Source: Armatimonadota bacterium
GTDB lineage: Bacteria; Armatimonadota; Hebobacteria; CAIYQO01
Assembly: GCA_038248345.1 (NCBI GenBank)
Contig: JBBRXO010000050.1
Span: 1 to 20,806, forward strand
Direction: 5' to 3'
DNA length: 20,806 nt
The position numbers and the translations under genes are program-made. Shown piece after piece: positions 10,139 to 12,327 of the stretch; the stretch's first letter is position 1, and each line of letters begins with the position of its first letter. The notes beneath the pieces are model-generated. The model saw only the letters and a program-made list of their open reading frames with translations, ran no database searches and was not told where the DNA came from.

Positions 10139-10188
10139 GGTATTATCCTCCTCAACATCATGCGTTGAAAATATCTACTAACATACAC

Positions 10189-10219
10189 ATTATACCATAA
10201 TCAAAGGCGAACAAAAACC
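10189..10219 (-). repeat. Copy 1 of a 31-bp direct repeat containing an extended -10 promoter
   Basis: + strand ATTATACCATAATCAAAGGCGAACAAAAACC, 30/31 identical to 11255-11285; the minus strand ends TGGTATAAT. Confidence 0.85.
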
Positions 10220-11206: not shown

Positions 11207-11254
11207 AATATCCCTCCTTATCAGGAATATGCACTATGCTCGACTAACAAGTAT

Positions 11255-11285
11255 ATTATACCATAACCAAAGGCGAACAAAAACC
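11255..11285 (-). repeat. Copy 2 of the 31-bp direct repeat / extended -10 promoter
   Basis: + strand ATTATACCATAACCAAAGGCGAACAAAAACC; ACTAACA also lies at the same offset from both copies (10177, 11243). Confidence 0.85.
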
Positions 11286-11299
11286 CGCTTATGCCAGCT

Positions 11300-11794
11300 T
11301 TACGCCACAGAGGCGGCGTAGGGTTCCAGATAGTCGGCCCATTGGGGGTTGTGGATGGCATAGACGAATTTGTGGTAGCTGATGTAGGGGAGACATTTCG
11401 GGCGGCGGGGCTTTACACCCAGCATCATGCCGGCGGCTTCCGGGGTGCGGTCGCCTTTTTTGTTGTTGCATCTGGTACAGCAGCAGACCAGGTTATCCCA
11501 TTCATTGCGCCCACCGCGTACGCGTGGGATGACGTGGTCAATGGTGAGGGGCAGATGGGTAGCGCCACAATAGACACAGCGGTTACCATCGCGCGTGAAG
11601 ATGCTCTTGCGCGTGGGCTTGAGGATCGGCATGGGGCGGTGTACGGGATAATTCAGCCGCACGACCGTGGCGCCGCAGCCGTACTGATCATCCAACGGAT
11701 GCGCTTTGCCCAGATATAGCATGGTCAGCGCCCGCCGCCGGCTGGTGACGTTCAACGGTTGATAATTATGATTCAGTACCAGGACCTCGTCCAC
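11300..11794 (-). CDS. HNH endonuclease (zinc-binding, McrA-like) with PLMP-like N-terminus
   Basis: RKSIFTRDGNRCVYCG, TIDHVIPRVRGG, WDNLVCCCTRCNNKKG; N-terminus VLVLNHNYQPLNVTSRRRALTMLYLGKA. GTG start with AAGGAG RBS. Confidence 0.93.
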   Translation of the reverse strand: MDEVLVLNHNYQPLNVTSRRRALTMLYLGKAHPLDDQYGCGATVVRLNYPVHRPMPILKPTRKSIFTRDGNRCVYCGATHLPLTIDHVIPRVRGGRNEWDNLVCCCTRCNNKKGDRTPEAAGMMLGVKPRRPKCLPYISYHKFVYAIHNPQWADYLEPYAASVA

Positions 11795-11822
11795 CTGCTT
11801 GCTCCTTCAACTGGAATATACC

Positions 11823-11861
11823 AAAGAAAAAACCCGCGTCATCCCAGAAGGTGACACGGGC
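11823..11861 (-). terminator. Intrinsic terminator about 30 nt upstream of the HNH start codon
   Basis: Minus strand GCCCGTGTCA-CCTTCTGGGA-TGACGCGGG-TTTTTTCTTT. Confidence 0.85.
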
Positions 11862-12010
11862 ACAATCTATCCTTAAACAGCCACATACATTGACAGACAC
11901 AGTGTAGTGAACTATCCCACGCAAGTAGATGCCGGGGCTGGCCATGTAAGACCCGCCTCACTGTGCTAACCCTGACTCGACAATGAGAAATGCACATTTC
12001 GGAATCCACC
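11823..12010 (-). ncRNA. Candidate structured leader (attenuator) or stand-alone sRNA upstream of the HNH gene
   Basis: Bounded by a TTGACA/TATTAT promoter and a terminator. Nested pairings 11981-11985 with 11888-11892, 11972-11974 with 11894-11896, and 11959-11966 with 11897-11904. No known RNA family recognised. Confidence 0.45.
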
Positions 12011-12016
12011 ATAGTT

Positions 12017-12046
12017 ATAATATCGCAGAAGCGGAGGGGGTGTCAA
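12017..12046 (-). promoter_or_regulatory. Sigma70-type promoter driving the HNH leader
   Basis: Minus strand TTGACA (12046-12041)-18 nt-TATTAT (12022-12017). Confidence 0.65.
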
Positions 12047-12053
12047 ATTCTTA

Positions 12054-12287
12054 TGTTTCGCCACCCATGATGCAGTTTTTAGTTCTTGTCGGTTTTACCC
12101 AGTCGTAAACGACTGGGCTAGGTGGCTACGCCGATCGTCCTTCGGACGGGAACTAATGCCCTTAACCGTCCCGCCCAGAGGGCGATCGGCCGTAGGCCTT
12201 CCAGCCTGGTCGTTCACGGCCAGGTCAGAACAGAGGGTTTGTCATAAAACAGATACTATTTGTTTCGCCACCCATGATGCAGTTTTT
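12054..12287. mobile_element. REPIN/MITE-like palindromic element flanked by 27-bp perfect direct repeats
   Basis: TGTTTCGCCACCCATGATGCAGTTTTT at 12054-12080 and 12261-12287. Inside: hairpins CCCAGTCG-TAAA-CGACTGGG-CTA (12098-12120) and CAG-CCTGGTCG-TTCA-CGGCCAGG (12202-12224), and inverted arms 12126-12151 / 12169-12195. Confidence 0.7.
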
Positions 12288-12298
12288 CTGCTTCAAAT

Positions 12299-12327
12299 TT
12301 GATACTTGGCCGTTGAATTGTTATAAT
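12299..12327 (+). promoter_or_regulatory. Sigma70-type promoter of etfBA
   Basis: TTGATA-17 nt-TATAAT with a TG extended -10. Confidence 0.75.

Follow-up and report, generated by a model that had tools for sequence, protein, structure and literature searches.

The window analysed here is the whole stretch of 20,806 nucleotides of a contig from an Armatimonadota bacterium, and the locus of interest lies on its minus strand. An ORF at positions 11794-11300 codes for a 164-aa protein, and it is preceded by a compact unit made of a promoter, a short ORF and an intrinsic terminator. The features are the following, in window positions.

11300..11794, minus strand: PLMP plus zinc-HNH protein of IshB architecture, with PLMP-like residues 2-36 and HNH residues 73-125, without RuvC
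11815..11842, minus strand: second promoter-like match, 9 of 12 consensus bases, present in 1 of 18 close loci
11826..11861, minus strand: intrinsic terminator, with hairpin 11861-11832, invariant CCCG:CGGG core and U tract 11831-11826
11839..12012, minus strand: leader ORF of 57 codons, from ATG at 12012 to TGA at 11841-11839, inside the 3' arm of the terminator
11899..11952, minus strand: conserved 18-codon leader core VLHGQPRHLLAWDSSLHC, with codon-position and synonymous bias and its W codon at 11919-11917
11951..11961, minus strand: G-rich stretch, candidate antiterminator, pairing at 10 of 11 positions with the 5' arm of the terminator (duplex -18.3 kcal/mol)
12017..12046, minus strand: sigma-70-type promoter TTGACA-18 nt-TATTAT, 11 of 12 consensus bases, box kept in relatives

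The initial annotation of this DNA had described an intact zinc-HNH core and a PLMP-like N-terminus in the 164-aa protein, and both descriptions were borne out, the second for residues 2-36. Specifically, the Pfam family HNH_5 matches residues 73-125 (E 1.2e-16), and residues C73, C76, D86, H87, N101, C106, C109 and N110 are invariant in 112 aligned homologues. As the zinc cysteines as well as D86, H87, N101 and N110 are invariant, the protein is predicted to be an active nuclease. The N-terminus of the family was compared by hhalign with 120 IscB N-termini, the IscB set being composed of one RRXRR-positive Armatimonadota locus and 120 of its homologues as listed. The two aligned over residues 2-36 of the HNH family in 35 ungapped columns (probability 93.3, E 2.7e-7, score 35.8), while the maximum was 10.8 among 18 other windows of the IscB alignment and 15.6 among 100 column shuffles. 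In addition, an HMM of the IscB N-terminus matches 97 of the 112 HNH-family members near their start at E <0.01, the window protein with 1e-4, and a weak match in a search of solved structures places positions 1-36 of the family profile on the N-terminal motif of TbaIscB. The similarity appears against the IscB N-termini and not against the Pfam RRXRR model, which gave no match in the 164-aa protein. Comparison of full IscB with the HNH-family profile aligned the PLMP and HNH portions and nothing else, in support of the PLMP plus HNH architecture without RuvC proposed earlier. The best solved-structure and NCBIfam matches of the HNH domain are IscB and Cas9d; the nearest relatives of the protein that carry names belong to Armatimonadota, and its Pfam and NCBIfam matches include no IshB model.

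A review describes IshB as PLMP plus HNH without RuvC, of about 180 aa (PMC10734217), and the name is attributed to Altae-Tran et al. 2021, as conveyed by PMC10734217 and PMC11610941. Taking IshB from these descriptions, the window protein resembles it in its PLMP-homologous N-terminus, in its HNH domain with catalytic and zinc residues, in the absence of RuvC and in its size. IshB received its name as a relative of the ancestor of Cas9, and the passages on it in the two sources give it no tested function; one of the sources, a commentary, counts it among omega-RNA systems (PMC11610941), and the review states that the PLMP domain of IscB contacts the last loop of the omega RNA (PMC10734217). 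Both statements, together with the PLMP homology to IscB, are in favour of a reading in which the 190-nt upstream transcript serves the nuclease as a guide or as an RNA partner of the omega/HEARO kind, as first proposed for this locus, or in which the PLMP domain at least binds the terminator hairpin.

The genomic distribution of the gene argues against such a partner RNA. A match at E 1e-30 or better was found in 228 of 251 Armatimonadota genomes, with one listed match each, as for a single-copy core gene of the phylum. Its neighbour genes recur at the family level among loci, and no transposase was recognised among these recurring neighbours when the neighbourhoods were read by eye. The mobile IS200/IS605 context and the patchy or multi-copy occurrence of OMEGA systems are thus not found for this gene, which differs from the IshB/OMEGA picture in being a single-copy core gene with a short ORF and a terminator upstream. 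RRXRR exceeds its cut-off in 2 of 201 Armatimonadota genomes; two true IscB-like genes, L212 and L213, occur in Armatimonadota genomes G098 and G122 and are rare compared with the PLMP-HNH gene. In many loci of Kryptonia, Bacteroidota and Ignavibacteria (L014, L020, L026, L034, L037, L040 and others) the HNH gene has no leader and follows a gene whose C-terminus appears, by its motif, to be NlpC/P60-like. Rice WSL9 is at most a candidate plant relative.

Upstream of the gene, the TTGACA/TATTAT promoter reported earlier was recovered at 12046-12017, and a TTGACA box lies at the equivalent position in relatives. The leader transcript is predicted to start near 12012, the position at which the 57-codon ORF begins; in-frame alternative starts are GTG 12009 and ATG 11997. 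In 17 of 18 close loci an in-frame start codon is found 34-50 nt past the -35 box, and the message would therefore be leaderless or nearly so. The strong terminator of the initial annotation also stands: a hairpin of -19.5 kcal/mol is followed by its U tract (together 11861-11826), and a simple terminator scan of the window did not list the hairpin. The second promoter that had been proposed at 11842-11815 is present in the window, which is the only one of the 18 loci to have it, and it is probably a chance match.

The nested helices that had been described between promoter and terminator did not withstand comparison. The folding of the 191-nt unit gave a z of -1.47, with 14 of 200 shuffles folding as well. 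Across 16 aligned loci, drawn from the 18 motif-bearing close loci, six of the seven MFE helices are 33-57% paired and the terminator alone reaches 78%. Whole-structure totals do exceed those of the column shuffles (1/500), but related sequences can beat this control even in the absence of structure; the consensus fold retains the 8-bp terminator along with a single weak hairpin of 6 bp, nothing more. What the homologues keep of an upstream structure is the terminator hairpin, and not the rest. A scan against Rfam gave no match in the window at gathering score and, by E-value, four sub-threshold matches, the best being the trpB motif over the terminator (22.5 bits vs 59); HEARO had no match anywhere in the genome. 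6S RNA was considered as the identity of the upstream unit and rejected, as the RF00013 match (61.3 bits) is on contig C61 instead. The 6S RNA of this genome lies at G000:C61:17-198 and its tmRNA at C75:4133-4520.

Upstream terminators, counted as hairpins that reach -15 kcal/mol and carry a U-rich tail, were found in 46 of 54 loci of the same class and in 69 of 102 other Armatimonadota loci. The corresponding counts are 18 of 98 for non-Armatimonadota loci, 2 of 72 for viral loci and 30 of 150 for control ORF upstream regions of this genome; metagenome loci in this count are sorted by similarity and not by taxonomy. The CCCG:CGGG core is kept in 38 of the 46 own-class terminators vs 30 of 148 ordinary terminators of the genome, an enrichment that would suit a hairpin recognised by the PLMP domain. 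The absence of a conserved scaffold and of an Rfam or HEARO match speaks against a partner or guide RNA, and so does the absence of the unit from most homologues beyond Armatimonadota and from several relatives (L009, L011, L012 and L093), in which the leader is missing and a promoter lies directly before the gene. One family (e.g. L132, L135, L137, L138 and L144) lacks the terminator and has a basic open frame that continues into the HNH gene.

The RNA unit delimited by the initial annotation contains an ORF that had been missed there, the 57-codon frame at 12012-11839. We compared 20 distinct loci with at least 68% protein identity, leaving out duplicates and loci with <200 nt upstream. The core R-[DE]-Q-L-R-x-L-L-[VA]-W-D-S-x-L-H-C, also written R-x-Q-L-R-H-L-L-V-W-D-S-x-L-H-C, is present in 18 of them; at the equivalent position the remaining two, L007 and L008, bear another short ORF. 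Across the 18 loci, pairwise differences in the ORF by codon position are 0.19/0.23/0.52, the synonymous share of differing codon pairs is 0.53 in the ORF frame vs 0.07-0.34 in the other five frames, and no stop occurs within the frame in this comparison. When the six motif codons by which the rows had been picked were omitted, the values were 0.28/0.31/0.54 (p 0.0004), and the bias also appears in 12 less related loci (p 0.002). A motif-free, six-frame, all-versus-all comparison upstream of terminators gave the best score on the sense strand in 213 of 232 diverged pairs, and it yielded further clade-specific peptide clusters in other classes, such as LLRLLDDS. Judged from these alignments, the upstream unit is a short gene with a core conserved at the codon level, and not a conserved fold. 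As the sequence variation follows codons, and as the gene is present in one copy per genome without mobile context, a partner or guide RNA appears highly improbable, and the locus drops off the list of guide-RNA candidates. The caveat of the initial annotation, namely that the RNA could be a cis-regulatory leader, turns out to be the better reading, the leader being of the translated type.

Neighbouring families show related cores (LVWDSYF, LVFDTY and LVRTAYFS), and loci of other Armatimonadota classes (L112-L211) have clade-specific leaders, including His-rich, LLRLLDDS, VFRH and FRIR types. A profile of 32 peptides searched against 1.84 billion proteins gave 25 matches, of which 23 carry the motif and two are repeat proteins; 22 of the 23 are 38-74 aa long, and the eight that were checked are unnamed or 'hypothetical'. 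In its own genome the profile has a single match (E 7e-9, the next at 0.2), and across loci it matches just upstream of the HNH gene and nowhere else. The leader peptide matched no NCBIfam family, and its best Atlas match (0.80) is unnamed. The peptide is not rich in any single amino acid outside its motif and shows no Cys/His enrichment over other frames, and amino-acid-specific sensing was set aside.

These properties would also suit a small protein acting in trans, such as one that inhibits the HNH nuclease and is made in excess because most transcripts terminate. The conservation of a 16-residue core at the amino-acid level, the strict linkage of the peptide to the HNH gene and the independent prediction of such proteins by gene callers can all be read in this way. 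The cores differ sharply between clades, however, whereas the nuclease stays 45-60% identical, and homologues beyond Armatimonadota are mostly without the unit. In addition, the distance from core to terminator is fixed while length, tail and stop vary, and some loci read through. A trans-acting protein is therefore considered improbable.

The geometry of the leader was examined in the same loci. The W codon lies 50-60 nt before the CCCG of the hairpin in all 18, while the residues past the core and the position of the stop vary. In 17 loci the stop is found -17 to +20 nt from CCCG, at or in the terminator hairpin, and one locus reads through; the order and spacing of promoter, ORF and terminator are conserved. 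In one related family, the U tracts of some loci are weak and their stops lie well beyond the hairpin. Given the core distance, the stop position and the footprint sizes of ribosomes, a ribosome at the stop would touch the 5' arm of the hairpin, and one paused where the core ends would not reach it. In the arrest peptides TnaC, SecM and ErmCL the conserved residues end abruptly and are followed by a variable tail, and in the coupling attenuators of pyrE and pyrBI the ORF runs into the 5' arm of the terminator; the window leader shows both traits. The proposed design is of a familiar type, and the core of the leader is a candidate ribosome-arrest motif, possibly a new one.

The pairing of the leader with the 5' arm peaks at W-51 to W-42, and for 12 of 18 loci the best window falls between W-42 and W-54. 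The peak is modest compared with a synonymous-codon null (-13.2 vs -10.8 kcal/mol). The candidate antiterminator of the window shows no covariation among close loci, and a preference for cognate pairs in the close family was not significant (p 0.14-0.17); one of 20 antiterminator tests reached p 0.04, in a more distant group, and was not counted as support. In equilibrium folds the terminator forms at every ribosome position, and no switch appears. Attenuators of the coupling type need no antiterminator. Since a conserved antiterminator was not found, the direction of the switch is one that we infer.

The lack of covariation and of cognate-pair preference is also compatible with the trans-acting protein discussed above and, together with the dominance of the terminator in all equilibrium folds, with a terminator that is a fixed throttle with constant leak-through, the translation of the ORF having no regulated effect. 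A constant throttle leaves unexplained both the selection on the peptide sequence and the fixed core-hairpin distance and stop position, and it is held to be very unlikely. After the attenuator, the readings thus rank in the order trans-acting small protein, fixed throttle, guide RNA.

The short ORF under coding selection and a terminator within reach of the ribosome on the leader are the marks of an attenuator, and we hold with good confidence that the upstream unit works as one. Against it stand the differences of the peptide between clades and its lack of a dominant amino acid outside the motif, the other peptide of 2 of 20 close loci, the relatives without the unit, the loci with weak U tracts and distant stops, and the negative antiterminator tests. 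Because a conserved peptide ending at the terminator is found, and not a conserved guide RNA, ribosomes likely decide whether the nuclease is made. In full, the unit of promoter, short ORF and intrinsic terminator is likely a leader-peptide attenuator, through which disturbed translation would permit synthesis of the nuclease; if attenuation is granted, induction by translation stress is itself rather probable. By default most transcripts would end at the terminator. The conserved core would act in cis as a nascent-chain pause or arrest, holding the ribosome some 15-20 nt before the hairpin, which would then form. Translation stress could open the switch by two routes: in the first, an early stall would let the G-rich stretch pair with the 5' arm, leading to read-through; in the second, the ribosome would be released and run onto the 5' arm, and RNA polymerase would read through. 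The HNH protein, predicted to be active, may act on RNAs that belong to the translation machinery, with tRNA or its precursors as the foremost candidates.

A switch that is off by default and opened by translation stress would resemble that of whiB7. As described for whiB7/wblC (bioRxiv 10.1101/2023.06.02.543512), a short ORF and an intrinsic terminator lie ahead of the gene, and read-through is expected under translation stress. That system has a defined antiterminator and the amino-acid content of its ORF matters, whereas the leader studied here has a sequence motif, a stop at or in the hairpin and a candidate antiterminator. Similarly, in the accounts of the mycobacterial leaderless short-ORF attenuators (bioRxiv 10.1101/834739) and of toiL-topAI of E. 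coli (PMC12121999), a 5' ORF senses stalling and controls what follows, toiL gating an operon of the nuclease-toxin type. In contrast to the present unit, these two are described as acting by occlusion of the ribosome-binding site (toiL also through Rho) and not by an intrinsic terminator, and the window leader has no polycysteine tract. A literature search that was light on subscription papers found no published work on the leader-peptide family, on a link between IshB and tRNA arrays or on a function of IshB. At this locus a gene of IshB type has the status of a core gene, putatively under the control of a translated leader.

A connection of the nuclease family to translation emerged from its homologues elsewhere. 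Among 80 viral homologue loci, 30 have tRNA genes within 1.5 kb, vs 3 of 80 control viral loci, the controls having been picked by an arbitrary 14-mer (80 of 120 found); related phages inflate the tRNA-linked count, and kin are not independent in any of the locus counts. Of three annotated homologues that were opened, two lie at tRNA arrays and one, in a Gordonia phage, has no tRNA nearby. On plasmid delta of Nostoc PCC 7120 a full-length homologue (37% identity over 145 columns including the N-terminus, E 8e-32; family profile E 4e-44) is directly upstream of 24 tRNA genes, and a homologue on a mycobacterial plasmid lies inside an array of 28. The Nostoc homologue, whose current locus tag is PCC7120DELTA_RS01760, is equated by its position with all8564.

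This gene has been described as an HNH gene conserved upstream of tRNA arrays and induced by chloramphenicol together with the tRNA operon and rtcB (PMC8421152), and as a target of TrcR, 17-fold up without this repressor (PMC10272220). HNH genes are also reported to be the most widespread coding genes of mycobacterial tRNA arrays (PMC5966550), and array-linked HNH genes are treated as homing endonucleases (PMC8421152, PMC5966550). In the passages on these genes, the three papers make no tie to PLMP or IshB. The window protein and the all8564-like HNH proteins share homology over their full length, including the N-terminal segment, but differ in setting and control: members of the latter are found within or next to tRNA clusters, both on plasmids and on viral contigs, while the Armatimonadota gene stands alone, and all8564 is under a TrcR-repressed promoter, while the Armatimonadota gene has a putative leader attenuator. 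No tRNA was found in the window, and a single tRNA is held by each of 4 of 181 Armatimonadota loci, many of which span just 1.4 kb; RtcB was not found in this genome, which is 96% complete. These results, the repressor control of the cyanobacterial homologue and the published homing interpretation weigh against the translation-stress reading proposed here.

A single-copy core gene distant from arrays fits homing badly, and a role on RNA in translation stress is therefore preferred. On the strength of the tRNA-gene linkage and of the chloramphenicol-induced homologue, IshB-type proteins resemble enzymes of translation stress more than mobile nucleases guided by RNA. That the PLMP-HNH protein acts on RNA of the translation apparatus is a tentative proposal, which we place somewhat short of even. 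More speculative, and on balance doubtful, is the wider view in which IshB-type proteins are neither homing nor RNA-guided DNA nucleases but widespread translation-stress RNases acting on tRNA or its precursors, identical with the HNH family of tRNA arrays and gated in Armatimonadota by a hitherto undescribed arrest-peptide class R-x-Q-L-R-x-L-L-V-W-D-S, the PLMP domain having begun as their RNA-binding part. If it were true, the module that IscB uses on omega RNA would have originated in a tRNA-acting RNase. The IshB family is in any case tied by homology to array HNH genes, one of which is induced by translation stress in a tractable cyanobacterium; the function of IshB thus becomes directly testable in Anabaena, and the leader motif in a cell-free system.

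Two further elements lie close to the locus. Upstream of the promoter, a 180-bp long-hairpin element (12081-12260, within 12054-12287; fold z -4.96 for 12050-12300) is bordered by a perfect 27-bp direct repeat that ends 8 bp before the -35 box. Matches to it occur at 27 places in the genome, many with terminal inverted repeats and short flanking duplications, and it is likely a MITE. One MITE-like copy lies near the tmRNA gene on C75, and in the same-genus locus L082 a copy occupies the equivalent place in reversed orientation. Downstream of the HNH gene, a 46-bp promoter-like sequence is found twice on the minus strand, at 11240-11285 and 10174-10219, 1066 bp apart. The first copy precedes a 58-aa ORF (11206-11030) with a weak match to NCBIfam SCO5555 (E 0.004), the second a reading frame that is similar but broken, near 10139-10000, and the 265-aa ORF between them is AT-rich and matches neither Pfam nor NCBIfam; the arrangement looks like a duplication or a cassette insertion.
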